Below, in pieces: positions 1,040-38,883 of a DNA stretch of 64,000 bases. The notes beneath the pieces were generated by a model. The model had not been told where the DNA came from and made no database searches. It saw nothing but the letters and a program-made list of their open reading frames with translations. A program made the position numbers and the translations under genes. Source of the DNA: a virus (lineage: Duplodnaviria; Heunggongvirae; Uroviricota; Caudoviricetes); IMG/VR virus record IMGVR_UViG_3300006167_000001, one strand, 5' to 3'. Numbering within the stretch: position 1 is the first letter of the stretch; every line of letters starts with the position of its first letter.

Positions 1040-1078
1040 GAGCTTGCGGAAACGCAGGCTCTTTTCTTTTCACGGTAT
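1040..1078. terminator. bidirectional rho-independent terminator
   Basis: Hairpin gagcttgcg-gaaa-cgcaggctc followed by a T-run, between convergent genes 808..1029(+) and the integrase(-). Confidence 0.6.
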
Positions 1079-12136: not shown

Positions 12137-12961
12137 ATGAAGCCTAAGCAAGGTCTGGTAAAGCAGACCGGAAAAGCCTTAAAAAAGGCGTCGCCGACAA
12201 TCTTGAGTATTCTCGGAGTTGTCGGCGTGGTTACAACGGCGGTTTTGGCCGTCAAAGCTACACCCAAAGCCCTTGAACGCATTGCAGACGCTAAAGAGGC
12301 TAAAAACCTCGAAAACGGCAAAGATTTGACCCGAATGGAGACGGTAGCAGCTTGCTGGCAATGCTATGTCCCTGCTGCCGCCACTGGAATCGCCACAATC
12401 GTGTGCATTATGGGCGCAAATGTCCTAAATCGGCGTCAACAGGCCTCTCTCACAAGTGCCTATACTCTACTTAACCGAACGTACCAGGACTATACAAAAT
12501 CGGTCAAGAACGTCTTCGGCGAAGAAGGTCATAAGCGCGTCTTGGAGGATATGGCCATTGAGCGGGTTCCTGAGAATCACACAATCTATACCGAAGGCAT
12601 GTTTGAATCTACTACCTTGGATTTTTGCATCCCCGAGGAGGAGCATCTGTTTTACGATGTTTACTCCAACCGGCAATTTGCTTCTACCATCGGAAAGGTG
12701 CTTCAGGCCGAATATCATCTGAACAGGATGTTCGCTCTGAATGGGAATGCCTCGCTCAATGACTTCTATAAGTATCTTGGACTCGATCCTGTTCCTGAAG
12801 GAGACGACATTGGATGGTGGGTCGATTTCGATAATGAGGCATATTGGGTCGAGTTCAATCATGCTGTCTCTTACATTGATGACGGGCCTGAACATCCGCA
12901 AGTCGAGTGCCTCATTATTGAGTTCCCGCAGCCGCCTGGTCTTCCGCCTCCCGAGGAGTAA
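12137..12961 (+). CDS. membrane protein, paralog family member 1 (VKATPKAL...CYVPAAxTG)
   Basis: 274 aa. Shares an N-terminal ~110-aa module with 13550 and 16028. Confidence 0.6.
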   Translation: MKPKQGLVKQTGKALKKASPTILSILGVVGVVTTAVLAVKATPKALERIADAKEAKNLENGKDLTRMETVAACWQCYVPAAATGIATIVCIMGANVLNRRQQASLTSAYTLLNRTYQDYTKSVKNVFGEEGHKRVLEDMAIERVPENHTIYTEGMFESTTLDFCIPEEEHLFYDVYSNRQFASTIGKVLQAEYHLNRMFALNGNASLNDFYKYLGLDPVPEGDDIGWWVDFDNEAYWVEFNHAVSYIDDGPEHPQVECLIIEFPQPPGLPPPEE

Positions 12962-13549: not shown

Positions 13550-14314
13550 GTGAACAAGCAAACCTTCGTGAAGGCTCTCAAAGATGTTCCGAAAATCCTG
13601 AAGAAGCACAGTCCTGAGCTTCTGACAGGCATCGGTATTGCGGGGATGATCTTCACGACCATCACAGCCGTCAAAGCAACACCCAAGGCCCTCCAGCTCG
13701 TGGATGAGCGAGAAATCAAGGAGGGAAAACGCCTGACCAACTCGGAGATCATCAAGACTACCTGGAAGTGCTATGTCCCCGCAGCCGTGACCGGTGTGTG
13801 CTCTATTGGTTGCCTGATTGGCGCCAGTTCAGTCAATGCCCGGCGAAATGCGGCACTCGCCACCGCCTACACCATCTCTGAAACTGCCCTCAAAGAGTAT
13901 AAGGAGAAGACTGTTGAGGTCGTTGGCGAAAAGAAGGAACAGGCGATTCGCGATGCAGTTGCCAGGGACAAGCTGGAGAAGGCCCAGGTGACCAGTCGTG
14001 AGTTCATCATCACCGGCAAAGGGGAAACTCCCTGTTTTGACCCGCTCACCAATTCCTGCTTCAAGGCGGACATTGAGATCCTGCGGAAGGCGGAAAACAT
14101 CCTGAATAAACGGATGCGGGACGAGATGGTGATAACTGTCAACGATTTCTTACAAGAAATCGGCCTCGACCCGTGTGACGATGCCATCGGCGAAAACATG
14201 GGCTGGGATATTGATAAGGGGTACATCGACTTGGATTTCAGCTCGCAGCTGGTCGAGGGCATTCCTTATCTTGTCATCGGACATCACAATCCGCCCCGCT
14301 ACATCGGACGGTAG
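13550..14314 (+). CDS. membrane protein, paralog family member 2
   Basis: GTG start after GAAAGGAG. N-terminal module VKATPKALQ...WKCYVPAAVTG. Confidence 0.6.
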   Translation: MNKQTFVKALKDVPKILKKHSPELLTGIGIAGMIFTTITAVKATPKALQLVDEREIKEGKRLTNSEIIKTTWKCYVPAAVTGVCSIGCLIGASSVNARRNAALATAYTISETALKEYKEKTVEVVGEKKEQAIRDAVARDKLEKAQVTSREFIITGKGETPCFDPLTNSCFKADIEILRKAENILNKRMRDEMVITVNDFLQEIGLDPCDDAIGENMGWDIDKGYIDLDFSSQLVEGIPYLVIGHHNPPRYIGR

Positions 14315-16027: not shown

Positions 16028-16990
16028 ATGAAGAAAAACGAAATCATGAAGTCTGTGGGCCTGACCTTCAACAAGATCGGCTTCCAGATTCAGAAGAAGA
16101 GCCCCGAGCTCCTGGTCGCTGCCGGTATCGCCGGCGTCGTTGTCAGCGCGGTCATGGCCTGTAAGGCCACTATCAAGGCCAGCGAGGCCGCCGAGGAGAC
16201 CAAAGAGACCATTGACGAGATCCACGAGGCCGAGGCCAACGGCATCACCAAGGCCGGCAAGGACTACTCCGCCGAGGACACCAAGAAGGATCTTACCACC
16301 GCCTACATCCAGACCGGCGTAAAGTACGCCAAGCTTTACGCTCCCGCTGTCATTTTGGGCGCTGCTTCCATCACATGTATTGTTGCCAGCCACCGTGTTC
16401 TGAAGAAGCGCAATATCGCCCTTGCGGCGGCCTATACGACCTTGGATAAGTCTTTCAAGGACTACCGTAGCCGGGTCATGGAGCGCTTTGGTGAGCAGGT
16501 TGAGAAAGAGATCCGCTACAACATCAAAGCCAAGGAGATCAAGAAGACCGTTGTCGACGAGAACGGCAAGAAGGAGAAAGTCAAAGAGGTGGTCGACGTA
16601 CCTGCCGTTGAAGGATGGGACCCCTCTCAGTACAGCCCCTACGCCAGGCGCTTTGATGAGGCCCATCCGCAGTGGACGAAGAATCCCGAAATGAACCTCT
16701 ACTACCTGAAGGCTCGGCAGGCGCAGGCCACCGATGCGCTCAGAGCTCGTGGACACCTGTTCCTAAACGAGGTGTATGATATGCTGGGCTTCCCCCGCAC
16801 TAAGGCTGGAGCTGTTGTGGGATGGCTGTACGATCCCAAGCGCCCCGAACTGGGCGATCATTACGTGGATTTCGGTATCTGCGAGATTCAGGATGGCGAC
16901 GGCTTCAAGGAATACTTGAAGTCCTATATCCTCGACTTCAACGTTGTTGGCGACATTACGAATGACATCGCCGATCATCAGTATATTTGA
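16028..16990 (+). CDS. membrane protein, paralog family member 3
   Basis: 320 aa. N-terminal module KKSPELLVAAGIAGVVVSAVMACKATIKA...YAPAVILGAASITCIVAS. Confidence 0.6.
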   Translation: MKKNEIMKSVGLTFNKIGFQIQKKSPELLVAAGIAGVVVSAVMACKATIKASEAAEETKETIDEIHEAEANGITKAGKDYSAEDTKKDLTTAYIQTGVKYAKLYAPAVILGAASITCIVASHRVLKKRNIALAAAYTTLDKSFKDYRSRVMERFGEQVEKEIRYNIKAKEIKKTVVDENGKKEKVKEVVDVPAVEGWDPSQYSPYARRFDEAHPQWTKNPEMNLYYLKARQAQATDALRARGHLFLNEVYDMLGFPRTKAGAVVGWLYDPKRPELGDHYVDFGICEIQDGDGFKEYLKSYILDFNVVGDITNDIADHQYI

Positions 16991-24873: not shown

Positions 24874-25074
24874 ATGAATAAGTTTGTTCAGTTCTTTGCG
24901 GAAGGTATCATCTATTACCGGGATAAGAAGGGCCGTCCCTGTGGCGTGAAGGAGCGCCGCATGGGGGGGGGCGTAACGCTCGGCAACGCTGACCTGATGG
25001 GTAAGATCTTTATGCAGTGCCCGGATCTGCTCCCCTGCGACTGGGTGGAGGTCGAGACCTGCCCAATCGGCTAA
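24874..25074 (+). CDS. hypothetical small protein containing a G9 tract (in frame)
   Basis: 66 aa. G9 at 24963-24971 encodes MGGGV. Confidence 0.45.
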   Translation: MNKFVQFFAEGIIYYRDKKGRPCGVKERRMGGGVTLGNADLMGKIFMQCPDLLPCDWVEVETCPIG

Positions 25075-25107
25075 ACAAAAAACAACCATTGAAAGGAGTT
25101 TTCAACC

Positions 25108-25599
25108 ATGGCAAACCCCAGAGTCACCGAAAACATCACGATTGAGAACGCTCATATCCTGTTCCGGAATTTCTCCGGCCGGGAGAGCAAGTACAACCGC
25201 GCCGGACAGCGCAACTTCTGCGTCTACATCGACGACCCGGAGATGGCGCAGCGCCTCATCGACGACGGCTGGAACGTCCGGGTACGTCCGCCCCGCGAGG
25301 ACGGCGACGAGCCCCGCTACTACATCCAGGTGGCGGTCAGCTTCGACAACATCCCGCCCACGATCTACATGCTGACCAAGCGGAAGAAGGTCAAGCTGGA
25401 TGAGGAGTCCATCGCCACTTTGGACTTTGCGGAGATCCGCAATATTGACCTGACCATCCGCCCCTACAACTGGATCATCCAGGAGGGCACCAAGAACGAG
25501 AAGAGCGGCGTCAAGGCATATCTGCGGACCATGTACGTCGTCATCGACGAGGATGAGTTCGCGGAGAAGTACGCCAGCGACGAGTATCCTCAGGAGTAA
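25108..25599 (+). CDS. hypothetical protein
   Basis: 163 aa. GC-rich. RBS GAAAGGAG. Confidence 0.55.
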   Translation: MANPRVTENITIENAHILFRNFSGRESKYNRAGQRNFCVYIDDPEMAQRLIDDGWNVRVRPPREDGDEPRYYIQVAVSFDNIPPTIYMLTKRKKVKLDEESIATLDFAEIRNIDLTIRPYNWIIQEGTKNEKSGVKAYLRTMYVVIDEDEFAEKYASDEYPQE

Positions 25600-25676
25600 G
25601 GAATGTGCAGGGGCGCTGGTAGGAGGTGACTGGCGCTCCTGCTCCTCGCTTTGATATTTCGCGAAAGGAGAAAACG

Positions 25677-25970
25677 ATGCCCAATGTCAGTTTGACCAAA
25701 GAGGAATGCTATTGTGGCATTGCCGAATTGTACGATACCATTGCCACAAAGCTTGGATACAACCCTGCTACTCTTTATTACGACTGCCGTAAGATATGTG
25801 TTTCAAAGCCTGTGATGGAGCAGATTTTTGCATACTACAAAGCTGAGAAGCGCGTAACAAGAGCGGCATTCAATCAACTATGGCTCAATCTTGGTCCGAA
25901 AGCCAATCTAACAGGAGATGACTACAAGGCTGATGCCCAAAATGGATTCGCCTTGGAGGCCAAGCCATGA
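25677..25970 (+). CDS. hypothetical protein
   Basis: ATG after GAAAGGAGAAAACG. Lower-GC gene. Confidence 0.5.
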   Translation: MPNVSLTKEECYCGIAELYDTIATKLGYNPATLYYDCRKICVSKPVMEQIFAYYKAEKRVTRAAFNQLWLNLGPKANLTGDDYKADAQNGFALEAKP

Positions 25971-26332
25971 ATGACTATTCATACTGCAACGCAATTTTTG
26001 TTGACGGCCTGAAAGCATTCTTGGATTACACCACTCCACACGCATTTGACAACGCGGTGACGAATGGATTAGCTATCCGCAGACGTTTGCAAAAAAGTGA
26101 TTTTGAAAAACGTTGTATTCAGAGATGGGCCATCTCTGAGTTGATGGAATCGATCGTGAATAACCCCCAAGACCCTGTCGAAGACACCACTTACAAGTTT
26201 GCATTGAAGCTACTTTCTTTTGCAGCGGCTTCAACTAACGCGAGCATGAGAAAGGTGTTTCACATCGCGGCAGATTTCATCGATAAAGAGGTTATCGGTC
26301 TCTTCAGAACGAAGGAGGGAATGTGCCCGTGA
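25967..26332 (+). CDS. hypothetical protein
   Basis: 121 aa. ATGA overlap with the upstream gene. Confidence 0.5.
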   Translation: MNDYSYCNAIFVDGLKAFLDYTTPHAFDNAVTNGLAIRRRLQKSDFEKRCIQRWAISELMESIVNNPQDPVEDTTYKFALKLLSFAAASTNASMRKVFHIAADFIDKEVIGLFRTKEGMCP

Positions 26333-26808
26333 AGAAGTCTTTCTGGCGACATTTTCGACTACCAAGAAAACGCAAACCAAAACCCAAGGCGGAATTGGTG
26401 GTGTATAAGCCGCCCAAAAAGCACATGACTGAGCCTGACCGCTGGGTGCCGCCCTTTGCGGCCAATAAAGAGACCCAGCCTCTCAAAGTCGACAAGCAAG
26501 ATTTGATTATTGTGAACGAACCGAACGGTTTAGACCTCGGCAAAGTCACAGCGACCGTCGGCATTATGTTGCAGGCAAGAATGGACTATACCTTCCAGCT
26601 TTTCGTTGATGAATGCCTCGAACGGTTCAAAAACCTTGACTGGGGCGGCGTAAACGAAAGCGAAAGACGGTTAAATGATCTTAGGATTACAGCTCGGACG
26701 GGCACTGTCTGCGGCATCTATACCGAACTCACTACCGGCATTCAAATCTGGATAGCCACTGATTTGGATCAGGGAATCACGAGGATTTGTCTGTCCGACG
26801 AACGCTGA
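26329..26808 (+). CDS. hypothetical basic protein
   Basis: GTG start 9 nt after GGAGG. K/R-rich N-terminus. Confidence 0.45.
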   Translation: MKKSFWRHFRLPRKRKPKPKAELVVYKPPKKHMTEPDRWVPPFAANKETQPLKVDKQDLIIVNEPNGLDLGKVTATVGIMLQARMDYTFQLFVDECLERFKNLDWGGVNESERRLNDLRITARTGTVCGIYTELTTGIQIWIATDLDQGITRICLSDER

Positions 26809-26821
26809 AAGAGGTGTTGAT

Positions 26822-27838
26822 ATGAAACCGTTTTGGCAGAGACCGCCTAAGAAAACTAAGAAGAAAAAGCGAAAGCCCAAGGCTGCTCCGCAAAGTGATG
26901 CTTTGAAACCGCTCCCAAAATCGAAGCCTGCGCCTTGGGTTCCTCCACATCCTATAATACCGAAAGCGCCCTCTATTGAGGACATAGCGAAACCCCCTAT
27001 GACCTATCAGATCTCACCCGCTTCAAAGAAGGACGAGAAACCGATTCAGCCTTCTCTTCCCACAGAGCAAAAAGTGATTCGCCATAGAGACGAGCATATA
27101 CGGAAGGATTTTCTGAAGGCGTTCCGGAGCTTGACTAACCGTTGGCGTTCCTGGGATATTTGGACCGACTTTATTACCATGGCCGCCTGCACTATTTCAA
27201 ACTCGGTGGACAAGCTCCACTTCGATGAGCGGGAAAAGACTTATCTTCGGATTATCAAGAAGTACAGCAAACAGGAGCAAGAAATCTTTCCACAGTTGTT
27301 TGCTTATGTGGTAACTGCTTTAGAAGAAAATCCTGAACAGGACTTTCTCGGTGATATTTACACCGAACTTGGCCTGAACAGTAAGGAGCATGAGCAGATA
27401 TTTACGCCGTACAACGTTTGTCATTTCATGGCTGAGATCACGATTGACGATCTTGCAGCGCAAGTTGAATCGAAAGGTGTCGTTGAGATTCACGACTGTT
27501 GCTGTGGTGCCGGAGCGATACTAATTGCGGCGTCAAATGTTGCAAAGGAAAAGCTCGAAAAAACCGATTTCAACTACCAGAATCATATTTTGGTCACGGG
27601 GCAGGACATCGACTATCTTGTAACCATGATGTGCTACATTCAGCTCTCACTGCTCGGTATGGCCGGATATTTCAAAGTCGGCAACGCTCTCAGCGACCCA
27701 ATGACAGATAAGGATAGTTTAGACAATTATTGGTTCACTCCAATGTATTTCTTCCCTGTTTGGCATTATCGGAGAGTCTGGCACAGTATAGGCAAACTGT
27801 TTGAGCCAAATGAAGACGAAATTGAAACCGGAGGATAA
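26822..27838 (+). CDS. N6-adenine methyltransferase-like SAM-binding protein lacking NPPF/Y motif, with Lys/Pro-rich N-terminal tail
   Basis: GQIFTPYNVCHFMAEI plus IHDCCCGAGAILIAA (HsdM-like motif X/I) and GQDIDYL. No NPPY/F downstream. Confidence 0.4.
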   Translation: MKPFWQRPPKKTKKKKRKPKAAPQSDALKPLPKSKPAPWVPPHPIIPKAPSIEDIAKPPMTYQISPASKKDEKPIQPSLPTEQKVIRHRDEHIRKDFLKAFRSLTNRWRSWDIWTDFITMAACTISNSVDKLHFDEREKTYLRIIKKYSKQEQEIFPQLFAYVVTALEENPEQDFLGDIYTELGLNSKEHEQIFTPYNVCHFMAEITIDDLAAQVESKGVVEIHDCCCGAGAILIAASNVAKEKLEKTDFNYQNHILVTGQDIDYLVTMMCYIQLSLLGMAGYFKVGNALSDPMTDKDSLDNYWFTPMYFFPVWHYRRVWHSIGKLFEPNEDEIETGG

Positions 27839-28061
27839 GTCTATGCAAAAATTCACTAAAATCGAAGTCTCTTGGATGGCAGTTGAGTTTGAAAAAAATG
27901 GCAAAGGAGCACGAACAGCAGTCCAAGGAGACATCTGACAGGGAGTTCGCCAAGATGCATCAGCTCAGGTCTGAGCAATACACTGATATTTCGCAGCGAC
28001 TTCGGTTAGCTCTCAAAGAAGGCGACAAACGAATCGAAATCAAGTAAGGGAGGTAATCTCC

Positions 28062-28513
28062 ATTTTAAGTCAGGCACTATTCTCTACGGGAAAGAATGAT
28101 TGGGCAACGCCGCAGGAGCTCTTTGATGAGCTTGATGCCGAGTTCCATTTCACGCTTGATCCCCGCGCAACTCCGGAAACGGCGAAGTGCGCTAAATTCT
28201 ATACGGAAGAAGACAACGGACTTGCCCAGGATTGGACTGGAGAGACGGTGTTCTGCAATCCTCCCTACTCTGACCAACAGCAGACCGAATGGGTCAAAAA
28301 GTGCTACGAACATGGAGTCCGGGGGGGGGGGTAGCAGTTATGCTGATCCCGGCCAGAACCGACACAAAACGCTTCCATGAATACATTTATGGAAACGCGG
28401 AAATACGCTTTATCAAAGGCCGGCTGAAGTTTGGTGGATGCGAAAACTCTGCGCCCTTCCCCTCCATGATCGTTGTATTCGGAAAAGAACCTACTGAAAG
28501 GAGGCCGCGGCCA
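28062..28513 (+). pseudogene. phage Dam-family N6-adenine DNA methyltransferase interrupted by an 11-nt poly-G tract (frameshift); no canonical start codon
   Basis: N-part DWATPQELFDELDAEFHFTLDP...FCNPPYS...KKCYEHGVRGGG* stops right after G11 (28321-28331). The next frame continues VAVMLIPARTDTKRFHEYIYGNAEIRFIKGRLKFG...SMIVVF and runs without a stop into the helicase. G9 or G12 would restore the frame. Confidence 0.6.
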
Positions 28514-29755
28514 ATGGGACGCATAAATCTCCGTGACTACCAGCTCGACGCTATCAAGCAGATGAAAAACGGATGCATCCTGTGCGGCGGCGTCGGAAGC
28601 GGTAAATCCCGCACTTCCCTTGCATACTACTACGATTTGCAAGGTGGCAATCTTCTCGCATCGGATGAAGTCGCCATGAAGAATCCGCAAAATCTCTATA
28701 TCATCACGACAGCCCGGAAACGGGATACCTGCGAGTGGGAAGGGGAACTGGCTCCGTTCCTCCTCTCTACTCATCCTGAGTGCAACTACTACAAGAACAC
28801 TGTGGTTGTGGACTCATGGAATAACATTGGAAAATACACAGAAGTCAAGAACGCATTCTTTATATTTGACGAGCAGCGGGTAGTTGGTTATGGCGCGTGG
28901 ACAAAAGCCTTTCTAAAGATCACCAAGGCCAACAACTGGATTCTACTGTCCGCTACACCTGGGGACACTTGGCAGGACTATATTCCTGTCTTCATTGCCA
29001 ACGGGTTCTATCGCAATAAAACTGACTTTGTCGACCAGCATGTCAACTATGACTGGCGGGCTAAATACCCGAAAATCGACAGCTATCGAAACACTGGTCG
29101 TTTAATTCGGTTACGCAACAGCATCCTCGTAAACATGGACTTCAAGCGGCAAACCGTTTCTCATCACGAGGACATCCCCGTTCCGTATGATATTTCCAAA
29201 TACAAAGACATCATGCGGAAACGTTGGAATCCTTGGGAGGACCGTCCAATCGAAACGGCAGCGGAATTGTGTATGGCACTTCGGAGAGTTGTCAATTCTG
29301 ATGACGCCCGGTCGGTTGCTGTGCTCGAAATCTTGGAGGATCATCCCAAGGCCATCATCTTTTACAGCTACGACTATGAACTGGAGATTCTCCGCTCCCT
29401 CGGATATTCGGAGGGTACGGAGGTCGCAGAGTGGAACGGCCATAAGCATCAAGAGATCCCGACCGGAGACAAATGGGTTTACTTGGTTCAGTACACTGCT
29501 GGCTGCGAGGGGTGGAATTGCATCACGACTGACACCATTATATTCTACTCTCAGCAGTATTCGTATAAGGTGGCCACGCAGGCTGCTGGACGAATTGACC
29601 GCCTCACAACACCGTACCATGACCTGCACTACTATCATCTGAAAAGCTTCTCTGGAATTGACCTCGCCATCAGCAAGGCTCTCAAACAGAAGAAGAATTT
29701 CAACGAGGGTAAGTTTGTGGGATGGACTACAAAGCCAATGCCAAGAGCCGCATAA
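28514..29755 (+). CDS. SF2 (SNF2/DEAD-like) helicase
   Basis: RBS GAAAGGAGG. Walker A GGVGSGKS. Motif II FIFDEQ. Motif III LSATP. Motif VI QAAGRIDR. Confidence 0.8.
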   Translation: MGRINLRDYQLDAIKQMKNGCILCGGVGSGKSRTSLAYYYDLQGGNLLASDEVAMKNPQNLYIITTARKRDTCEWEGELAPFLLSTHPECNYYKNTVVVDSWNNIGKYTEVKNAFFIFDEQRVVGYGAWTKAFLKITKANNWILLSATPGDTWQDYIPVFIANGFYRNKTDFVDQHVNYDWRAKYPKIDSYRNTGRLIRLRNSILVNMDFKRQTVSHHEDIPVPYDISKYKDIMRKRWNPWEDRPIETAAELCMALRRVVNSDDARSVAVLEILEDHPKAIIFYSYDYELEILRSLGYSEGTEVAEWNGHKHQEIPTGDKWVYLVQYTAGCEGWNCITTDTIIFYSQQYSYKVATQAAGRIDRLTTPYHDLHYYHLKSFSGIDLAISKALKQKKNFNEGKFVGWTTKPMPRAA

Positions 29756-29828
29756 TTTGCAAGTCCTATTACGGAGGAGATGCTACATAGCGTCTTCTTT
29801 TATATTTCATGGAAGGAGGCGAAATGCC

Positions 29829-31127
29829 TTGCAAAAGCAGCCTGACCTTGAAGTCAAGGTATTCTTTGACACTTTGTCCGGCACAGCATCCATCAAGGCA
29901 AAAAAGCAACTCCTCGCTGAGAAGCGAGATGACGGAAACGTCAAAAAATTCTTGGACTATCTGTTGAATCCGTTCTTCATCACAGGTATCTCTGAGAAAA
30001 AGATTAGCAAGGCGGCAGTCAAAGAAGCGACCATTCAGTTCACTTCGTTCCACGAGCTAATGCCTTACATTCGGCAGAACCATACCGGCACTGATGAAGT
30101 GCTGGCAAATGTCCAGGCCTTCTTAGAAGGTGCGGAGGACGAACTGCGGTCGTTCTACATGGGCATTATCACCAAGACCATTCGCATTGGGTGTGATGTC
30201 AAGACTGTAAACGACGCATTTAGGTTCGAGCTCATTCCTCAATGGGAAGTGCAGCAGGCTTATCAGATCGGCAAGCTGAAAATGAATGAGAACGAGTGGT
30301 TCAGTTTGAGTCAAAAGCTCAATGGCGTTCGCGGTACCTACTTTGAGGAAAAGCTCATCAGCCGGCAGGGAAAAGAGTTCAATGGACTGGACCATATCCT
30401 GGCAGACATCCAAAACCTTATCCCGGATTGTGAGAATTGGGTACTTGACGGAGAGCTGATTCGCAAGAACATCGACCATGTCTCTGATAACGAGAACTTT
30501 CGGCTGACTACCGGAATCATCAATCAGGAAGATGGCGATAAGAGTCTGATTCAAATGGTGATCTTTGATATTTTGCCGAAGTCCGAGTTCCTCTACGGCG
30601 AGAGCAAATTGCGATATCGAGATCGCCTTGAACAGCTAAAGAAGTTGAAACGGCAGATACGGAGACTGGGTCTGTCTGCTCTTCGTGTTGTGGATATTCT
30701 CTATACCGGAACCGATATGTCCATGATTTCGCCGTGTCTGGACCGCATGATTGCCGAAGGCAAAGAGGGCATGATGCTGAACCGTAACTGTAAATACTTC
30801 AGAAGACGTCACAATGGCATTCTGAAAGTGAAGCAGTTCTATACGGTAGATCTTGAGGTCGTAGACCTTGAAGAGGGGACGGGGCGACTGACCGGAACTT
30901 TGGGGGCATTCGTTGTGCGCTACAAAGGTAACTACCTACGGGTCGGCTCTGGCATGACCGATGAGCAGCGGAAGCTGTTCTGGAGCGACGGTATCAGTTT
31001 GATCGGGCGTGTCATTGAAGTCAAGTATAAGGACGAAAGCCTTGACAAACGAACAGGTCTTTACAGCCTGCAATTTCCGATCTTTGTCCAACTCCGTGAA
31101 CTCGGAAAACAAGAAAGCTACGACTGA
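29829..31127 (+). CDS. ATP-dependent DNA ligase (motif I variant KLNG)
   Basis: TTG start 9 nt after AGGAGG. Motif I KLNGVRG. Motif V EGMMLN. OB-fold region LKVKQFYTVDLEVVD...LGAFVVRY...VGSGMTDEQR. Confidence 0.75.
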   Translation: MQKQPDLEVKVFFDTLSGTASIKAKKQLLAEKRDDGNVKKFLDYLLNPFFITGISEKKISKAAVKEATIQFTSFHELMPYIRQNHTGTDEVLANVQAFLEGAEDELRSFYMGIITKTIRIGCDVKTVNDAFRFELIPQWEVQQAYQIGKLKMNENEWFSLSQKLNGVRGTYFEEKLISRQGKEFNGLDHILADIQNLIPDCENWVLDGELIRKNIDHVSDNENFRLTTGIINQEDGDKSLIQMVIFDILPKSEFLYGESKLRYRDRLEQLKKLKRQIRRLGLSALRVVDILYTGTDMSMISPCLDRMIAEGKEGMMLNRNCKYFRRRHNGILKVKQFYTVDLEVVDLEEGTGRLTGTLGAFVVRYKGNYLRVGSGMTDEQRKLFWSDGISLIGRVIEVKYKDESLDKRTGLYSLQFPIFVQLRELGKQESYD

Positions 31128-31148
31128 TATTTTAGGAAAGGAGCCGAA

Positions 31149-31637
31149 ATGAGCTGTTGGACTTATGTAACGGGCGTCATCGAAGTCGATACTTGTGCCA
31201 GGAGTGATGCGGAAGCCATGTATCTCGCTCAAACTGTCGTCAACCATCTGCCACGGATTACTGGCTCGGAAAGAAGCGCAGAGTTGTACTTGTCACAACC
31301 GAATGGTTACTGTTCGTCGTGCAACGTTGACGAATTTGACCAACCCAGTAATCTTTACGATGACAGACATTTCCGGATGTTCACTACTCAGGACAGAGTT
31401 TTGATTACGATTCACGGGAATCTCCGCGACCGCCTATTCAAACAAACTTTACATGAGACTACAAAAATGCTGACAAGACTATCGTCCAGACTTTGGGTGC
31501 GAGAGTGTCTTGTTCGGGTAAAGTCAGATATGGGCGAGACATTTATATTTGACAATCCGGAATGGGTTCGCAACAGAGATCTTACAAATTGGACTCAAAA
31601 AATATTAAGAAAGGATGGCGATCCAAATGATGGATGA
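31149..31637 (+). CDS. hypothetical protein
   Basis: 162 aa. RBS AGGAAAGGAG. Confidence 0.5.
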   Translation: MSCWTYVTGVIEVDTCARSDAEAMYLAQTVVNHLPRITGSERSAELYLSQPNGYCSSCNVDEFDQPSNLYDDRHFRMFTTQDRVLITIHGNLRDRLFKQTLHETTKMLTRLSSRLWVRECLVRVKSDMGETFIFDNPEWVRNRDLTNWTQKILRKDGDPNDG

Positions 31638-32238
31638 CTATGATATTCTCCCTCGCATCGGGCATTTCAACGATTTGATGGAACCGGCTGCACATTTGTT
31701 TCCGGCCGGTTTTACTCAGGACTTGAAAGCAAACGGCTTCTTTACGGCTCCGGCCAGCACCAAGTATCATGGTGCTTTTGAGGGCGGCCTGTTTGAGCAC
31801 AGCCGGAATGTGACGCAAGTCCTCGTTGCTCTCACCAAGGACAATGGGCTGACATGGCAACGGCCTGAGTCACCTTACATCGTTGGGATGTTCCATGACC
31901 TGTGTAAAATCGACTTGTATCAGCATCCAATGTCGGATATGGTTTTGCACACATGGCGTCCTGACGGGGAAGAAGAAATCCGCAGCGTGGATATGTCCAG
32001 ATGGGAACACAATCCTGATACTCTGCTCAAAGGGCATGGCGATAAGTCCATAATGCTGCTCTCCCAGTATATGCAGCTCACCCTGGAAGAGATCCTATGC
32101 ATTCGATACCATATGGGCGCATTTGTGGATAGAAACGAGTGGAATGACTATACGCGAGCCATCCACCAGTTCGTCACTGTTCTCTGGACGCACCATGCCG
32201 ACATGATTGCCTCACACATCCTTGAGGATGCGAGGTGA
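31615..32238 (+). CDS. HD-domain phosphohydrolase (candidate dNTP triphosphohydrolase, DatZ-like?)
   Basis: H...H (HGAFEGGLFEHSRNV) and the HD pair in GMFHDLCK. Start could be 31627/31630. Confidence 0.65.
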   Translation: MAIQMMDDYDILPRIGHFNDLMEPAAHLFPAGFTQDLKANGFFTAPASTKYHGAFEGGLFEHSRNVTQVLVALTKDNGLTWQRPESPYIVGMFHDLCKIDLYQHPMSDMVLHTWRPDGEEEIRSVDMSRWEHNPDTLLKGHGDKSIMLLSQYMQLTLEEILCIRYHMGAFVDRNEWNDYTRAIHQFVTVLWTHHADMIASHILEDAR

Positions 32239-32440
32239 TAAAATGTTCAAGAAATATTTGGCGCAACTGAATGACCTTGCGCAGAATTATACGCATGAAA
32301 ACTTCGTGCAAATCCAGAAAGTTCAGGCTGATATTTTGACCTCCTATACAAAAGGCAGTTTGGACGACTTTGAGAAGCGGCATCTCTATGGCATTTCTGA
32401 AATTATTATGAGGGGTATAAGAGAGGAGTTGTTGAAATGA
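32207..32440 (+). CDS. hypothetical protein
   Basis: 77-aa ORF. Confidence 0.4.
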   Translation: MPHTSLRMRGDKMFKKYLAQLNDLAQNYTHENFVQIQKVQADILTSYTKGSLDDFEKRHLYGISEIIMRGIREELLK

Positions 32441-32781
32441 GGGCAAGCTATTGCTTACCATCCGGAAACTACAATATTGTCCTCTCCAATGAAGAATTGC
32501 GTGAGCTTCTTGAACGGGGACATGTGACTGCTCGTATGTCTCGAACTCCTTGCACAACAAGCAGAGCCATCTTTAATGATGAAAAGGGTAAAATGGAGAT
32601 TCGTGACAAGAAACACATTGATAACTGCTTGTTTTTTCACGCTAAGGAACCTGTCGCTGATATCGAAGCGGGCGACCACTATGTACAGTTCTTGTGTATC
32701 AACATTGAGAGAAAGACGGGAGGTGATACCGATGGCTCAAAAGAGAATCAAGATGGTACGGACGGACATCTTGAACTGTAA
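32437..32781 (+). CDS. hypothetical protein
   Basis: 114 aa. ATGA coupling. Confidence 0.45.
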   Translation: MRASYCLPSGNYNIVLSNEELRELLERGHVTARMSRTPCTTSRAIFNDEKGKMEIRDKKHIDNCLFFHAKEPVADIEAGDHYVQFLCINIERKTGGDTDGSKENQDGTDGHLEL

Positions 32782-32963
32782 AGTCCGACTTCTCTATGAT
32801 GACGGCAGTCAAGGTGAGCTCGACATGACGAAGGCGAAAGTTTCTACGAGCGAGGCCGCCTTTGTAGTCGGCATGACTTTGAAGCAAGCCAAGATGCGGC
32901 TCGGTATCAAGAGTTGACAGCTTTGGGCCGAACATTATATTCTGTCAGATGGGAGGTGAAAAA

Positions 32964-33749
32964 ATGATCGGTGCAATTATCGGCGACATCGTTGGTTCTC
33001 GGTTCGAGCGGGCAAACTGCAAATCTACTAAATTCGAGCTGTTTATAAAAAGATGTTCATTTACTGATGATACCGTGATGACGCTTGCGATTGCAAAAGC
33101 GCTGCTTGAAAGCGACAATGATTGGAGCAGACTGAGAGAAAATGCCGTGAAGTGTATGCAGGAAATCGGTAGGAGGTACCCAAACTGCGGATACGGTCAG
33201 ATGTTCTATCTGTGGCTCCATAAGCGAAACCCAAAGCCCTATAACAGCTTCGGAAATGGGGCGGCCATGAGAGTAAGTCCGGTAGCATATGTGGCTGAAA
33301 CAATAGAACAATGCATCGAGCTTTCCGACATAGTCACCGGAGTTAGCCACAATCATCCAGAAGGGTTAAAAGGCGCTCAGGCTGCCGCAGTTGCAACCTG
33401 GGCTGCATTGCAGGAAATGCCGAAACAGGAAATTCGAGAGTTGATCGAAGATCGCTTTTACGACCTGAACTTCACGATTGATGAGATACGCCCGAAGTAC
33501 CGTTTCGATGCATCCTGCCAAGGCAGTGTACCACAAGCAATTAAAGCGTTCCTGGAATCCGACGATTTTGAGAGCGCGATACGACTCGCTGTCTCTATTG
33601 GAGGTGATAGTGACACGATTGCCGCCATTGCGGGAGGAATCGCAGAGGCATACTACGGTATCCCGGAACATATCAAAATGCAGGCCATAAAATACTTGCC
33701 AGAGGATCTACGCGACATCATGGTTGAGTTTGAAGTGGCCTACTATTAA
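32964..33749 (+). CDS. ADP-ribosylglycohydrolase family protein
   Basis: GAIIGDIVGSRFE, FTDDT, GNGAAMRVSPVA, GGDSDTIAAIAGGIAEAYYG (ARH signature). Confidence 0.8.
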   Translation: MIGAIIGDIVGSRFERANCKSTKFELFIKRCSFTDDTVMTLAIAKALLESDNDWSRLRENAVKCMQEIGRRYPNCGYGQMFYLWLHKRNPKPYNSFGNGAAMRVSPVAYVAETIEQCIELSDIVTGVSHNHPEGLKGAQAAAVATWAALQEMPKQEIRELIEDRFYDLNFTIDEIRPKYRFDASCQGSVPQAIKAFLESDDFESAIRLAVSIGGDSDTIAAIAGGIAEAYYGIPEHIKMQAIKYLPEDLRDIMVEFEVAYY

Positions 33750-33818
33750 ACTGAATGAAACGAAGGTTCCTCTACTTTGAGGAGCCTTCGTTTTATATTT
33801 TGAAAGGAGAAAATTTTT

Positions 33819-35864
33819 ATGGAATTCAACAAGTTCAAGAAAGCGATTCAAGATCATTTCGCAAAACTGAGCGAGACTGCCGACCATGTCTACGAGGTGG
33901 AAGTGGACAAGGATGCGCTGTGGAACCTGTACTTGGACAGCTTCCCCGCTGGAACCAACGAAATCTATCGGAAGCGCCGCGAGTACGATTGCAGCTGCTG
34001 CCGGCAGTTCATCCGGGCCATCGGCAACGTGGTGTTCATCAAGGACGCCATTATCCACACTATTTGGGAGCTTACCGATCTCGGCTCCACGTTCCAACCT
34101 GTGGCGGATGCGCTGGATGCCTACATCAAGGCCCACGCGGTTACGGACGTTTATATTTCCAAGTTCGCAAAGATCGGCACCAACAAGAACCATGAGCAGC
34201 TCTCGGATGGCACTGTGAAGACCTGGGAGCATTTCTATCTGGAGCTCCCCTCCAAGTTCGTCGATAAGAGCCAGCGTTCTGTCGGCGACCTCAAAGGCCC
34301 TTTCCGGGATACCAAGAACGTCTTCAAGCGGTCTCTGGAGGAGATTACGGATGATACTGTTGATACCGTGCTTGAGCTAATCGGCCAGAAATCCCTGTAT
34401 AAGGGCGAGGAATGGCAGCACGTCTTGGAGGAATTCAAGAAGTACAAGGCTATGTATGCTGCAACGCCGGAGGAACTCCAGGACAACTTTGCCTGGGAAC
34501 AGTCCATGAACGCCGGTATGGCAGTCGGTCGAATCCGCAACCACAGCATGGGTACTCTCCTGGTCAATATCAGCCAGGGGATGGAGCTGGATGAGGCTGT
34601 TCGCAAATACGAGGTCATCGTGGCCCCGACAAACTACAAGCGGCCCAAGGCAATTTACACAAAAAAAATGCTTGAGAATGCGAAGCAGACGATCTCCGAC
34701 CTTGGATATTTGTCTTCCCTGGGGCGGCGCTTCGCTACTCTGGACGATATTACGGTGAACAACATCATGTTTGCCAACCGAAATGCGGCGCAGCGCATCC
34801 AGACCGGGACTGATATTTTCAGCGAGATGGAGCGAGACATCGCTGTCGACCCGAAGAAGTTCTCTCGGGTACAGGAGATCTCGATTGAGGATTTTGTCAA
34901 AAACGTACTCCCGACGGCTACCTCGGTGGAGACTTTGCTGGAGAATCGGCATGCGGCCAATATGGTCTCGCTGATTGCGCCTGCGGATAAAGACAGCAAA
35001 ACCATGTTCAAGTGGGCTAATGGCTTCAGCTGGGCATACTCCGGCAACATCACTGACAGTGACATCCGCGAGAACGTGAAGATGGCCGGCGGCAAGGTAG
35101 ATGGTATCCTCCGTTTCTCCATTCAGTGGAACGACGAGGATTTCTGCCCGAATGACTATGATGCCCACTGTAGGCTTCCCGACGGCAGGGAGATTTACTT
35201 CCATGAAAGGCTGGATCGAGTGACCCTCGGTGAACTGGACATTGATATTATTCACCCGCAGAGGGGAACTCCCGCTGTCGAGAACATTGTATGGTCTTCC
35301 ATGACCAACATGAAGCCGGGGACTTATCTGATGTACGTCCACTGCTACACCAACAGCGGTGGTCGGAGCGGCTTCAAGGCTGAGGTGGAGTTCGATGGAA
35401 CGATTCACTCCTTCGAGTATAAGAAGGAGCTTCGGCGGGACGAAATCGTCAAGGTAGCTGAGGTTACCTATGACCCGGCCACCGGCTTCACGATTAAGGA
35501 TCTGATCCCCTCCTCTGTGTCCACACGGGATATTTGGGGGCTCAAGAGCAACCAGTTCGTTCCCGTCTCTGTTGTCATGTATTCGCCCAACTACTGGGAC
35601 GAGCAGGACGGCATCGGTCATCGGCACTACTTCTTCATGCTCAAGGACTGTGTCAATCCCGAGCGGCCCAATGGCTTCTACAACGAGTTCCTGAAGCCTG
35701 AGCTGGAGCAGCATCGTCGTGTCTTTGAGGCTCTTGGAAGCAAGGCGGCGGTTCAGGACGTGGAGGATCAGCTCTCCGGGATGGGCTTCTCTGCTACAAA
35801 GCGGAACAGCCTGTTGGTCAAGGTGAAAGGCGCCACTGAGCGCATTCTCAAAATCACATTTTAA
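33819..35864 (+). CDS. large hypothetical protein (681 aa), Cys cluster near N-terminus
   Basis: Long GC-rich ORF with RBS GAAAGGAG. No domain recognised by eye. Confidence 0.6.
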   Translation: MEFNKFKKAIQDHFAKLSETADHVYEVEVDKDALWNLYLDSFPAGTNEIYRKRREYDCSCCRQFIRAIGNVVFIKDAIIHTIWELTDLGSTFQPVADALDAYIKAHAVTDVYISKFAKIGTNKNHEQLSDGTVKTWEHFYLELPSKFVDKSQRSVGDLKGPFRDTKNVFKRSLEEITDDTVDTVLELIGQKSLYKGEEWQHVLEEFKKYKAMYAATPEELQDNFAWEQSMNAGMAVGRIRNHSMGTLLVNISQGMELDEAVRKYEVIVAPTNYKRPKAIYTKKMLENAKQTISDLGYLSSLGRRFATLDDITVNNIMFANRNAAQRIQTGTDIFSEMERDIAVDPKKFSRVQEISIEDFVKNVLPTATSVETLLENRHAANMVSLIAPADKDSKTMFKWANGFSWAYSGNITDSDIRENVKMAGGKVDGILRFSIQWNDEDFCPNDYDAHCRLPDGREIYFHERLDRVTLGELDIDIIHPQRGTPAVENIVWSSMTNMKPGTYLMYVHCYTNSGGRSGFKAEVEFDGTIHSFEYKKELRRDEIVKVAEVTYDPATGFTIKDLIPSSVSTRDIWGLKSNQFVPVSVVMYSPNYWDEQDGIGHRHYFFMLKDCVNPERPNGFYNEFLKPELEQHRRVFEALGSKAAVQDVEDQLSGMGFSATKRNSLLVKVKGATERILKITF

Positions 35865-35878
35865 GGAGGACATGTAAA

Positions 35879-36265
35879 ATGGAAGCTAACAAAATGTTTG
35901 AGGTTGCGGTTCGCAACAAGTTCCGGTATCCCTACAAGGGCGTCATCGCCACTGAGGACCTCTGGGATCTGTCTGTCCAGCAGTTGGACGGCATCTTCAA
36001 AACGCTTAAGTCTCAGGAGAAGAAGGCGCAGGAGGAGAGCCTTCTGAACACCCGCACTCCGGAGGACGAGATCCTGACGGCCAAGATCGAGATCATCAAG
36101 TACATCGTCAACACCAAGCTGGAGGAGGCCAAGCTGGCTGAGCGCGCCAAAGAAGCGCACGACCAGAAGCAGAAAATCCTCGGCATCCTCGCTGAGAAGC
36201 AGGATGAGGATCTGCGCAACAAAACCCCTGAAGAGCTCATCGCCATGCTGAATCAGTTCGGCTAA
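35879..36265 (+). CDS. hypothetical protein
   Basis: 128 aa. Confidence 0.5.
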   Translation: MEANKMFEVAVRNKFRYPYKGVIATEDLWDLSVQQLDGIFKTLKSQEKKAQEESLLNTRTPEDEILTAKIEIIKYIVNTKLEEAKLAERAKEAHDQKQKILGILAEKQDEDLRNKTPEELIAMLNQFG

Positions 36266-36338
36266 GCGGAGCAACAACGGGAAGGCCTGCGGAAACGTGG
36301 GCCTTCCCAAATTATATTTTGGAAAGGAGAAAACTTCC

Positions 36339-36635
36339 ATGATCGATATTGAAGGCTTAGATAAGGCGGAGGTTCTGAAAGCCTTATATGACCATTCTCA
36401 TGTCCAGGGCATGGGCTTCCTTCAGGCTGTTCCGGCGGGAACGGTGACGGTGGATCACTGCCGAGACTTGCTCAAACAGAGCACTTACTTTGATTACTTG
36501 TACGGACGGGTGCTCAAAGTTGACCTTTCCAGCGACGCATTCGATGAGCGGCTTTATGAGCGTGACAATGGCCCCAATTCTGCCGCGATGGCGATGCTTC
36601 CTTTGCGAGGCAAGCGAAAGGAGAATGTCAAATGA
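36339..36635 (+). CDS. hypothetical protein
   Basis: RBS GGAAAGGAG. Confidence 0.5.
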   Translation: MIDIEGLDKAEVLKALYDHSHVQGMGFLQAVPAGTVTVDHCRDLLKQSTYFDYLYGRVLKVDLSSDAFDERLYERDNGPNSAAMAMLPLRGKRKENVK

Positions 36636-36862
36636 ACATTTTGGTAGGAGAACGCCAGCAGGGTAAGACAACGCATCTGATTAAAATGTCGGCGGCCGGC
36701 AAAGGTATTATTGTGACTCCGACTGAGCGTAGCGTCAAGTACATCAAGGATCAGGCCAAGGCGATGGAGCTGGATATTCCGGAACCTATCAGTTGGGGGC
36801 GTTTGGTTTTGCCCGGCTATGGCTATCACCGTGGGCATATAGGCCCCCTATCTCCTCGATGA
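36632..36862 (+). CDS. small P-loop (Walker A GERQQGKTT) protein
   Basis: 76 aa. Its stop TGA overlaps the ATG of the next gene (cgATGAac). Confidence 0.45.
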   Translation: MNILVGERQQGKTTHLIKMSAAGKGIIVTPTERSVKYIKDQAKAMELDIPEPISWGRLVLPGYGYHRGHIGPLSPR

Positions 36863-37516
36863 ACTTGGTGAAATCCTCAGGGGGGGGGGCTTGGAATCGA
36901 AACCGCAATTCTCGACGATGAATGCGGCATTGAGGATCTGTCAGTCGAATCGCTGCACTACGGCAACGAGCTGACAGAGAAGATCCGGGAGAGTGCGAAG
37001 GATTTCAACAAGCTTTCAGACTTTGACAAGTTCGTCCTTGATAATGGTTATCGGTACGAAACTCGGGAGGCGCTGCAAGCCGGATATGACCGCCATTGGA
37101 AAGCGGCCCATGATATTTTGGTGACCATGGAGGAGTTTCTCGCTGAGGCTGAAAAGAAACCGAGTGATCCGGCTGCTGATGTATATGAGACCCTTGCTGG
37201 CCTGGTTGAAGCAAAGAAGCTCCGTCCCGGAGAAGTTCTCGATTATGCGCACTTCCACTGGTGTCTCGATGCCCCAGAGGCGATTGTTGCCTGGCAAACC
37301 GGACGGGACAAGTGGACTGTGAACAACTGCGATGCTGAAATAACCGAAGTAGAGGCGCGTATCAAGATTTGCGAAGAGTGGGGCTTCGAGACTGGCCGGC
37401 TTCATATCATTGGCACCCCCTACTATGATGCGACCGACCACCAATTCATTCGCTTCAACTGTGCCCATATGGCATGGCTCTGGCAGAACGGCAACCTACT
37501 TCAGGTGTATTGCTGA
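36859..37516 (+). pseudogene. hypothetical ~220-aa gene interrupted by a G10 tract (frameshift)
   Basis: ATG 36859 reads MNLVKSSGGG, then G10 (36880-36889). The long downstream frame LGIETAILDDECG...MVTMEEFLAEAEKK...LLQVYC* is reached only with G9 or G12. Confidence 0.45.
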
Positions 37517-37528
37517 GGAGGAAACCAA

Positions 37529-37822
37529 GTGTTCGGACGAAAAAAGAAGCCAGAAAGCGAAAACATCCGGAAATTCGTTGATATTCTGTATCAATTCGAG
37601 ATGGAACACCCAGACGAACTGTGCCCGCCCATTACCGAACCGCAGTTAGTTGTAGACTGCCTCTGCGATGTGTTTTTGGGCGCGGACTGGTACACAGCCT
37701 TACCGTTGAATACAAAGCAGGTCAATACTGTCATTCTTGACGAAATTCTCAGAAAACACAGCAAAGAATTTAGAAAGCTGATTGAAGAGAAGCGGAAAGA
37801 GTGGAAGGTATTAAAATTGTAA
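37529..37822 (+). CDS. hypothetical protein
   Basis: 97 aa. Confidence 0.45.
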   Translation: MFGRKKKPESENIRKFVDILYQFEMEHPDELCPPITEPQLVVDCLCDVFLGADWYTALPLNTKQVNTVILDEILRKHSKEFRKLIEEKRKEWKVLKL

Positions 37823-37833
37823 AGGAGAAAACC

Positions 37834-38883
37834 ATGGAACTGAAACAATTCTGTAAGGAAAACAACATCCCGCTGGAAAAGCTGGGTGATATTGGAGAGG
37901 TGAGCGATGGCTTCCACACTTTCAACTCGCTCTACCAGCAACGGCTGATTCTGTCCGCCACTCTGGTCAACGCCTTTTCGCATCTGGCGTGGAAGTCCCA
38001 TAAGCACCATGACGGCGAAGCCCCGTTCGGCGGTGGCTGGTTTATCGTCGGTATCAATACGCCGGAGGGTCAGTACACCTATCACTACGAGGACAAGGAC
38101 TGGGATATTTTCCGCTGCCAGGAGCTGGAGAAGGCTCCCAAATTCGACGGCCATACTGACAAGGACGTTGAACGGCTGTTGTCTCTGGTTCCTGATCCTG
38201 AGAAGGATACGATGTCCAGCTGGGCCGCCCATGAGGTCGAGCTGGTGATTCAGTCTGAAAAGGAAGCCTCCAAGGGTACAGATGAATGGATGATGGGCGC
38301 CAACTGTTACGAGAGTGCGCTTCGGGCATTCAACGTTCTCGCCCGCGATGGCCACTCTGGCTTCAGCATTCAGATGACCAAGAGCATCCTGAACCGCCTG
38401 ATCGACGGTAGGTGCCTTACCCCCATTGAGGATGCGCCTGATATTTGGTCGAACATCTCGGGGATCTTTTCCAAGGGAAGTAAGACCAAGCATTATCAGT
38501 GCAAACGACTCTCTTCCCTCTTCAAAGAGGTGGCGGAAGACGGCACTGTGACTCTGAGTGATACCAACCGTGTCTGCGGGATGAATGTGAACAACCCTGA
38601 TGTGACGTTTACGAATGGCTTCATGACCCGGTTGATCGACAAGATATTCCCGATCACTCTGCCCTACCTCCCGTCCAGCAAGAAGTTCAAGGTCGCGGTG
38701 GATGACTTCCTCGTTGATCCCAAGAACAGCGACTATGACACCATCGGTTATCTCTACTTCACCACGCCGGATGGTAAGAAAGTGGAGCTGAACCGCTACT
38801 TCAAGGAAGTTGACGGCCAGATGGTCCAGATTGAGAAGGCCGAGTTCGATGAGCGGAAAGCAAAGCGGGTGGAGCGTAAATAA
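37834..38883 (+). CDS. hypothetical protein
   Basis: 350 aa. RBS AAAGGAGAAAACC. Confidence 0.55.
   Translation: MELKQFCKENNIPLEKLGDIGEVSDGFHTFNSLYQQRLILSATLVNAFSHLAWKSHKHHDGEAPFGGGWFIVGINTPEGQYTYHYEDKDWDIFRCQELEKAPKFDGHTDKDVERLLSLVPDPEKDTMSSWAAHEVELVIQSEKEASKGTDEWMMGANCYESALRAFNVLARDGHSGFSIQMTKSILNRLIDGRCLTPIEDAPDIWSNISGIFSKGSKTKHYQCKRLSSLFKEVAEDGTVTLSDTNRVCGMNVNNPDVTFTNGFMTRLIDKIFPITLPYLPSSKKFKVAVDDFLVDPKNSDYDTIGYLYFTTPDGKKVELNRYFKEVDGQMVQIEKAEFDERKAKRVERK

Follow-up and report, generated by a model that had tools for sequence, protein, structure and literature searches.

Why would a phage genome carry long runs of G inside its reading frames, at lengths that leave some of those frames broken? 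The question is raised by a 64,000-nucleotide stretch of the IMG/VR virus record IMGVR_UViG_3300006167_000001 (Caudoviricetes), hereafter the window, which is a temperate phage or prophage. Its three poly-G tracts, T1, T2, and T3, are located in the plus-strand early region, among genes for replication and anti-defense. We propose that all three are very probably slipped-strand phase-variation contingency loci of a temperate phage of Oscillospiraceae (gut Clostridia), at which gain or loss of G residues would toggle a Dam-family DNA methylase and two further genes in and out of frame. The tracts are as follows.

24963-24971, plus strand: T1, nine G (G9), in frame (ON) in the window
28321-28331, plus strand: T2, the Dam tract, eleven G (G11), out of frame (OFF) in the window
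36880-36889, plus strand: T3, ten G (G10), OFF in the window

These are the only runs of at least six G in the window, and each lies inside an open reading frame (ORF), at the positions that a preliminary description of the same DNA had given. No C run of six or more exists on the shown strand of the 64-kb window, which bears out the remark in that description that the tracts have no comparable C run beside them. The preliminary description also held the runs to exceed chance, and this part of its claim stands: under an analytic first-order Markov model of the window, three G/C runs of at least nine are seen against 0.33 expected (Poisson P ≈0.005). The GC (guanine plus cytosine) content of ≈55% that it assumed does not stand, the value being 49.0%. 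Under the same model, G/C runs of six to eight are missing altogether (zero seen against ≈21 expected, P ≈7e-10). The absence of these intermediate runs alongside three long ones indicates that G/C homopolymers are generally avoided in this genome, the three long tracts excepted. Run lengths are bimodal across 80 related loci (1.45 Mb) as well, where runs of 9-10 outnumber those of 7-8.

Contigs carrying T2 were collected by pattern scans on its exact flanks and by exact-protein look-ups of neighboring genes. These yielded 28 contigs beyond the window, drawn from IMG/VR, ENA, JGI, and Logan assemblies, one Oscillospiraceae metagenome-assembled genome (MAG), and one record whose title names a bacterial strain. 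Scans of IMG/VR anchored on the flanks of T1 and T3 gave no match, and both loci were recovered through exact-protein look-ups of neighboring genes instead. Across the 29 T2 sequences, window included, the tract measures G7 (one contig), G8 (11), G9 (eight), G10 (seven), or G11 (two), and Dam is in frame in eight. Contigs close to the window differ from it in substitutions and in insertions or deletions (indels) as listed here.

L110 (JGI 3300006149): no substitutions over ≈8.49 kb; indel at T2 only (G9)
L111 (JGI 3300006147): no substitutions over ≈8.49 kb; indel at T2 only (G10)
L114: 8 substitutions over ≈8.49 kb; indel at T2 only (G9)
L116: 4 substitutions over 6.7 kb; indels at T1 (G10) and T2 (G9)
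L117: 21 substitutions over 6.3 kb; indel at an A6/A7 site only, with T2 at G11 as in the window
L106: 10 substitutions over 6.3 kb; indel at T3 only
L102: 2 substitutions; indels at T3 and one of 15 nucleotides

At all three tracts, then, consensus length varies among near-identical independent contigs, which supports the slipped-strand phase variation put forward in the preliminary description. The same variation could be read as homopolymer error in sequencing or assembly, with a constant true length (for example, nine G) and all three genes intact. Long G homopolymers are a weak point of sequencers; some contigs have low coverage, judging by their names, and the window is off by one base from several relatives at an A run (A7 versus A6) and at a C run (C5 versus C4). 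We nevertheless consider this explanation very unlikely. Consensus lengths differ by up to 4-5 bases between pipelines and projects, whereas the closest contigs have no other indels over ≈6-8.5 kb despite the A/T runs of 6-8 that these stretches contain; such runs are constant among the closest contigs, with the A6/A7 site at 27892 as the sole exception. Because A7 and C5 are each common to many independent contigs, they are inherited alleles and not random errors, and the alleles that combine C5 with a long G tract and C4 with G5 (described below) are discrete and linked. Error would, moreover, leave the true length as the majority consensus, yet no one length dominates. The preliminary description had also allowed for a homopolymer basecalling artifact; that the same flanks enclose tracts of differing length in independent samples and assemblers is strong evidence against an error peculiar to this assembly.

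The lengths also recur. At T2, G11 is found on two backgrounds (the window and L117) and G9 on backgrounds that are 0, 4, and 8 substitutions from the window, and contigs with at least 99% identity to the window include all four ON/OFF combinations of T1 and T2. The same length on several backgrounds, together with several lengths on one background, is what recurrent, reversible slippage predicts, although as a sign of fast reversible switching inside a clonal population the recurrence is only suggestive. Polymerase slippage during phage or prophage replication would add or remove G residues and, because the changes are whole G units at homopolymers, no process beyond slippage is needed. Each locus would move in this way among three frames, of which the full product is expected only at lengths divisible by three (G9, G12).

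At T2, the G11 tract splits a Dam-family methyltransferase gene, as the preliminary description had recognized, and the second half of the gene runs into a helicase gene.

28062-28334, plus strand: N-terminal half of Dam, with the motif VFCNPPYS; in the G11 state it ends ...VRGGG, then TAG at 28332-28334
28331-28513, plus strand: C-terminal half of Dam (VAVMLIPARTDT...FPSMIVVFGK), in the helicase frame, with no stop codon ahead of the helicase
28514-29755, plus strand: SNF2-like helicase of 413 amino acids, preceded by a GAAAGGAGG ribosome-binding site of its own and starting at ATG 28514

A tract of G9 or G12 joins both halves into an ORF of 563 or 564 amino acids, in keeping with the earlier expectation that these two lengths restore long ORFs here and at the third locus. 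The in-frame Dam lacks its own stop codon: it reads past the ribosome-binding site and ATG of the helicase and continues into the helicase ORF; in a G9 contig (L110), the gene caller gives one long product with PF05869. In relatives without Dam, the helicase stands alone. The ON state would accordingly yield a Dam-helicase fusion by read-through, and the OFF state only the helicase, translated from its own start.

Repaired to G9, the Dam protein matches Pfam PF05869 with 100.3 bits (cut-off 28.1) and PHROG phrog_111, "DNA methyltransferase," at 2.5e-57, and its alignment with the intact Dam of Geobacillus phages and Lactococcus 936-group phages spans the full length at 61-65% identity. The catalytic (D/N)PPY motif is present, VFCNPPYS being invariant in the alignment with these enzymes, which stop near the equivalent of residue 140-146, ≈10-20 codons before the helicase-side read-through. 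Against the NCBIfam equivalog TIGR01712, the score of 88.8 bits falls under the cut-off of 97.05, so the target site is not to be assumed; a search of PDB sequences for matches to Dam found none. Judged from these family matches, the T2 protein is a predicted Dam-family phage N6-adenine methyltransferase (PF05869), as a member of the family and not as a certified equivalog. The gene has no ATG, GTG, or TTG start. Its sole plausible start is the ATT at 28062, 8 nucleotides after GGGAGG, and an ATT (ATC in one lineage) 8-9 nucleotides past GGAGG is kept in lineages whose upstream sequence is otherwise different, which suggests a deliberately weak non-canonical start.

A second alternative accepts the tracts as real but takes the genes to be decaying pseudogenes, whose tract lengths drift and whose switching is without function. 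Dam is out of frame in 21 of the 29 consensus sequences, near the two-thirds expected by chance; most related phages are without Dam; and at T3, 10 of 11 contigs are in an OFF state and the gene bears a second, fixed frameshift. Selection tells a different story. Purifying selection acts on each half of Dam in its own frame: the ratio of nonsynonymous to synonymous polymorphism (pN/pS) is 0.056 in the C-terminal half and 0.29 in the N-terminal half, against more than 1.5 in control frames. The N-terminal value is raised by L087 and others, a subgroup whose replaced N-terminus was left unrealigned. Such selection on both halves implies that the gene is used, even though it is out of frame in most consensus sequences. 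The repaired Dam has no further disabling mutation across lineages 84-100% identical, and its non-canonical start and ribosome-binding site are conserved. Most contigs have the T1 gene in frame, the protein family of T1 is well conserved, and at T3 the C-terminal-domain ORF of more than 200 codons is intact in all split-allele contigs examined. We therefore regard decay as unlikely.

Other differences at the Dam locus do not involve the tract. In L087, L090, L091, L092, L094, and L095, the first ≈30 Dam codons (≈28062-28150) are replaced and the gene begins with an ATG (MQAFTKTEISW...). The new N-terminus resembles the start of ORF 27844, and a deletion or recombination appears to have fused the two. 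Among the PHROGs, phrog_22740 (99 positions, unknown function) matches the N-terminal half only and phrog_6083 (94 positions, "DNA methylase") the C-terminal half only, which hints that split Dam genes have been annotated as two ORFs in other sequenced phages. The A6/A7 site lies upstream of Dam.

27892-27898, plus strand: run of seven A (A7), which frameshifts ORF 27844-28047 (67 amino acids with A6)

A7 is found in the window and five near-identical contigs, A6 in eight others, and AGAAAA in one contig. Gene callers report one 67-amino-acid gene with A6 and pieces of 31 and 49 amino acids with A7, and the site behaves as a second, slower homopolymer polymorphism or a lineage marker.

The first tract lies in a much smaller gene.

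24874-25074, plus strand: 66-amino-acid early gene carrying T1, just upstream of the gene for a single-stranded DNA (ssDNA)-binding protein (25108-25599)

The preliminary description had placed the G9 in frame within a small ORF, and so it is; only G9 and G12 yield the product of 66 or 67 amino acids. Among contigs with at least 98% identity to the window, five carry T1 as G9 and two as G10, and others have G7 or G11. Remoter relatives have G10, G11, or an in-frame G8 in a slightly different context, and others have a frame-breaking GT insertion or the sequence A6G5 without a tract. The protein family is conserved, occurring as in-frame forms of 65-67 amino acids with GG, GGG, or GGGG and also as truncated forms of 38-41 amino acids, one of which represents 37 contigs in a large protein collection. 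Its C-terminal half, with three cysteines, is highly conserved; searches of Pfam, PHROG, and NCBIfam gave no family match.

The third locus has a more complex history, in which a C run also takes part.

36632-36862, plus strand: 76-amino-acid remnant, the P-loop N-terminal domain (GERQQGKTT) of an ancestral 292-amino-acid gene
36844-36848, plus strand: C5 run, one C longer than in the intact allele (C4) and the cause of the split
36859-37516, plus strand: C-terminal-domain ORF from ATG 36859 (MNLVKSSGGG), with the tract at codons 8-10

The TGA of the 76-amino-acid gene overlaps the next start as ATGA, and the ORF from this ATG has 20 amino acids with the G10 of the window and 218 or 219 with G9 or G12. 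The preliminary description saw here an ATGA-coupled gene truncated by G10. This holds for the C5 allele but not for close relatives, since L096, L101, L103, L104, L107, and L108 have an intact single ORF of 292 amino acids that combines a P-loop N-terminal domain (GxxxxGKT, then LLDE) with a conserved C-terminal domain. The intact allele pairs C4 with G5, including in L108 (99.82% identical to the window), and the split allele pairs C5 with G8-13. In all 11 distinct contigs bearing the long tract, which come from different projects, it is joined to C5; its lengths are G8 (two contigs), G9 (one), G10 (four), G11 (three), and G13 (one). The 76-amino-acid product is listed in 99 blocks of a public collection. 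As read from these alleles, the third gene is a derived split allele of the 292-amino-acid gene, in which nine G is predicted to open the C-terminal domain and not the ancestral protein. A one-base C insertion would have split the gene at a domain boundary, and the expanded G tract may now gate translation of the stand-alone C-terminal domain. In related phages, this domain is either stand-alone (189-192 amino acids) or fused to other N-terminal domains, and the stand-alone homologs make a stand-alone T3 product plausible. Together with the intact C-terminal-domain ORF, they suggest indirectly that T3 has been kept functional. Searches of the T3 proteins against Pfam, PHROGs, and NCBIfam gave only phrog_1828 (unknown function).

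Two other models of this locus were set aside. A double error (C5 plus G10) in one 292-amino-acid gene was dropped because the allele that combines C5 with a long G tract is present in 11 distinct contigs. The idea that the ATGA-coupled gene is a wrong gene model was dropped in view of the G9 contig (L123), in which the gene caller gives a 218-amino-acid gene overlapping the 76-amino-acid gene.

The neighborhood of the C run also bears on a third alternative, in which the frame is restored at the G run by slippage of RNA polymerase or by ribosomal frameshifting, leaving the genes always partly on. In bacteria, transcription can slip on runs of at least nine identical bases (mostly A/T runs), and the CCC-C followed by a CTA codon at 36845-36850 resembles a possible +1 shift site. 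A programmed site should keep its length, however, and the conserved sequence and length that mark such sites are not found here: T2 ranges over G7-G11, T1 over G7-G11, and T3 over G8-G13, and different lengths would need different shifts. Slippage of this kind could make the OFF states leaky but would leave the polymorphism in the DNA unexplained, and we hold it to be highly improbable as an account of the tracts.

Phase variation thus has to be weighed on what the three loci share. They are homopolymers of hypermutable length inside ORFs, and their length varies among identical or near-identical genomes. Frames are toggled, with ON and OFF states both found in nature at each locus (Dam in frame in 8/29 contigs, T3 in 1/11, T1 in both forms), and selection has kept the Dam and T1 genes, as seen in the pN/pS of Dam and the conservation of the T1 family. 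Several points weigh against this reading. All length evidence comes from assembly consensus, and sequencers are prone to error in long runs of G; coverage is low in some contigs (2-7x, going by their names), and one sample may be represented more than once among the Logan and ENA contigs, some of which could be re-assemblies. Dam is in frame in close to one-third of the contigs, which is what neutral length drift would predict. T3, in frame in a single contig and carrying the fixed frameshift, could be a decaying gene. An AlphaFold model of an intact T3-family protein from a relative (P0001) reached a mean predicted local distance difference test score (pLDDT) of 72 and a predicted template modeling score (pTM) of 0.49, and a Foldseek search of the PDB with it gave no hit at E < 0.1.

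If phase variation is accepted, switching of Dam could serve as a hedge between hosts whose restriction is blocked by adenine methylation and defenses that attack methylated DNA, and the OFF state may also be favored in hosts where the methylase is costly. By analogy with tested systems, we infer that the adaptive role of the Dam switch may be bet-hedging.

The mechanism is that of known repeat-based contingency loci, which have already been reported in phages. Campylobacter phages, as Sorensen et al. are said to have described in Cell Rep in 2021, are virulent, infect a Gram-negative host with poly-G switches of its own, and carry tracts in receptor-binding genes. They resemble the present case in that poly-G lies inside phage genes, changes in length shift the frame, and phage populations are mixed. 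Here, in contrast, the phage is temperate, the host is an anaerobe of Gram-positive type, and the tracts affect a DNA methylase gene and early genes. A passage in PMC12823448 likewise cites hypermutable poly-G tracts in Campylobacter phages.

The closest tested analog, and the model for what we propose at Dam, is found in phages T2 and T4, where a homopolymer in a phage DNA-modification gene undergoes reversible frameshifts. In T2, the A run of the agt glucosyltransferase gene is a contingency locus that toggles DNA glucosylation and allows escape from TgvAB, which attacks modified DNA, or from McrA/BC, which attack unmodified DNA; the run reverts ≈1000 times more often than a point mutant, and in deep-sequenced propagated stocks the mutants are a minority of ~7e-4 (Gomez, Barrick and Waters, bioRxiv 10.1101/2025.10.21.683753). 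Those are A runs of virulent coliphages with experimental proof, whereas the tracts described here are G9-11, concern adenine methylation, and are known from sequence. A further difference from phage T2 is that the out-of-frame state here is often the assembly consensus.

Two other systems invite comparison. In the phasevarions of Haemophilus, Neisseria, and Helicobacter, phase-variable type III Mod methyltransferases are encoded by chromosomal mod genes alongside res and control host regulons. They share with the proposed Dam switch a repeat tract within a DNA methyltransferase gene that turns methylation on or off. The enzyme here is instead a small orphan of the Dam family (PF05869) in a phage replication module, where its neighbors are another N6 methylase, the helicase, and a DNA ligase; no res-like gene is among them and no nuclease partner was seen. 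Because there is no type III mod/res context, this is not a strict phasevarion. DarB of phage P1 is a methyltransferase-helicase anti-restriction protein and a very large virion protein. Here, too, the in-frame Dam joins methylase and helicase in one polypeptide; in the present case, the helicase also has its own start codon.

To our knowledge, repeat-based phase variation has rarely been reported in Clostridia. In our literature searches, we found no report of a comparable switch in temperate phages infecting gut Clostridia, of a Dam-family phage methylase as the switched gene, of several independent switches in one early or anti-defense region, or of natural populations whose consensus is often out of frame. 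Phage-encoded methylases are usually viewed as fixed anti-restriction tools. A methylase present in both states in natural gut phages would mean that hedging over the phage's own DNA modification takes place in the wild, beyond laboratory T-even stocks. With several switches per temperate phage, consensus genomes and gene calls would be snapshots of one state, and "broken" or split genes at G runs should not be dismissed as pseudogenes or errors.

Tracts of G or C are also found outside the window, among related loci. An intergenic poly-C tract (6, 8, 9, 10, or 12 C) separates a GC-rich hairpin from the ribosome-binding site of the following gene in L003-L010, L013-L016, L018, L020, and L041, ≈48 nucleotides past the ssDNA-binding gene (for example, L004:8294). 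Since this tract shifts no frame, any action would be on the initiation of transcription or translation. Tracts of G7-G11 lie 3-11 nucleotides before start codons, past a TATATT-like element, where a GAAAAGGAG site normally sits (L003:15812, L006:15820, L004:18406, L005:16096, L008:18853, L041:16766, and L096:11974). Most are directly preceded by A8-10; L003 has no A run, and no start codon was identified at L096:11974. Upstream of the T1 gene, the window has an unexpanded version (ctttatattttttgaaaaggag) of this A-run and G-tract element. At L002:19205, an in-frame G9 lies in the gene for a small two-helix membrane protein, between homologs of the Thoeris inhibitors Tad8 and Tad3; this gene is absent from the window.

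A more speculative reading, which we regard as possible but doubtful, is that the clade to which this phage belongs operates a full set of G/C switches, a "phasome," in coding and control regions and clustered in the early and anti-defense region near Tad8 and Tad3. Its coding switches would be Dam, the 66-amino-acid gene, the split P-loop gene, and the small membrane protein of the relative; its control switches would be A9-10 G7-11 replacing the ribosome-binding site and C6-12 between the hairpin and the ribosome-binding site. If this were so, combinations of states would give each burst or lysogen population a mixture of counter-defense types, and the Dam switch would also toggle between free helicase and a methylase-helicase fusion.

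The assignment to gut Clostridia draws on the company that the Dam tract keeps. With exact flanks, it is also present in a 301-kb contig of the Oscillospiraceae MAG (a prophage copy) and, in its in-frame form, in the record titled "Clostridiaceae bacterium strain 9" (QXXE01). Some record names (MGBC, XIAO15) may hint at mouse gut. Known phage genomes searched with a 14-kb region gave a single short match and no annotated close relative. The early region codes for a phage ssDNA-binding protein, two DNA methylases, the SNF2-like helicase, an ATP-dependent DNA ligase, an ADP-ribosylglycohydrolase, and the Tad8 and Tad3 homologs, and its ribosome-binding sites, as read from the sequence, are of the strong GGAGG type. 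The integrase and the anti-defense cluster near T3 have these positions.

1070-2305, minus strand: tyrosine integrase
32949-33749: ADP-ribosylglycohydrolase
37529-37822: homolog of Tad8, a type II Thoeris inhibitor
37801-38883: WDGH-Tad3 fusion, Tad3 being a type I Thoeris inhibitor

The Tad3 gene has a 15-nucleotide indel at ≈38089 in one near-identical contig. Between the integrase and a large DUF5906 primase-like gene lie three paralogous DUF6353 genes (12137-12961, 13550-14314, and 16028-16990). As for short palindromes in the window, GATC occurs at 227 sites (observed/expected 0.70, a figure without bearing on the specificity of Dam), and CGCG has an observed/expected ratio of 0.48. CTAG occurs once against 65 sites expected (observed/expected 0.02), a depletion that suggests strong avoidance of a CTAG-cutting restriction system.

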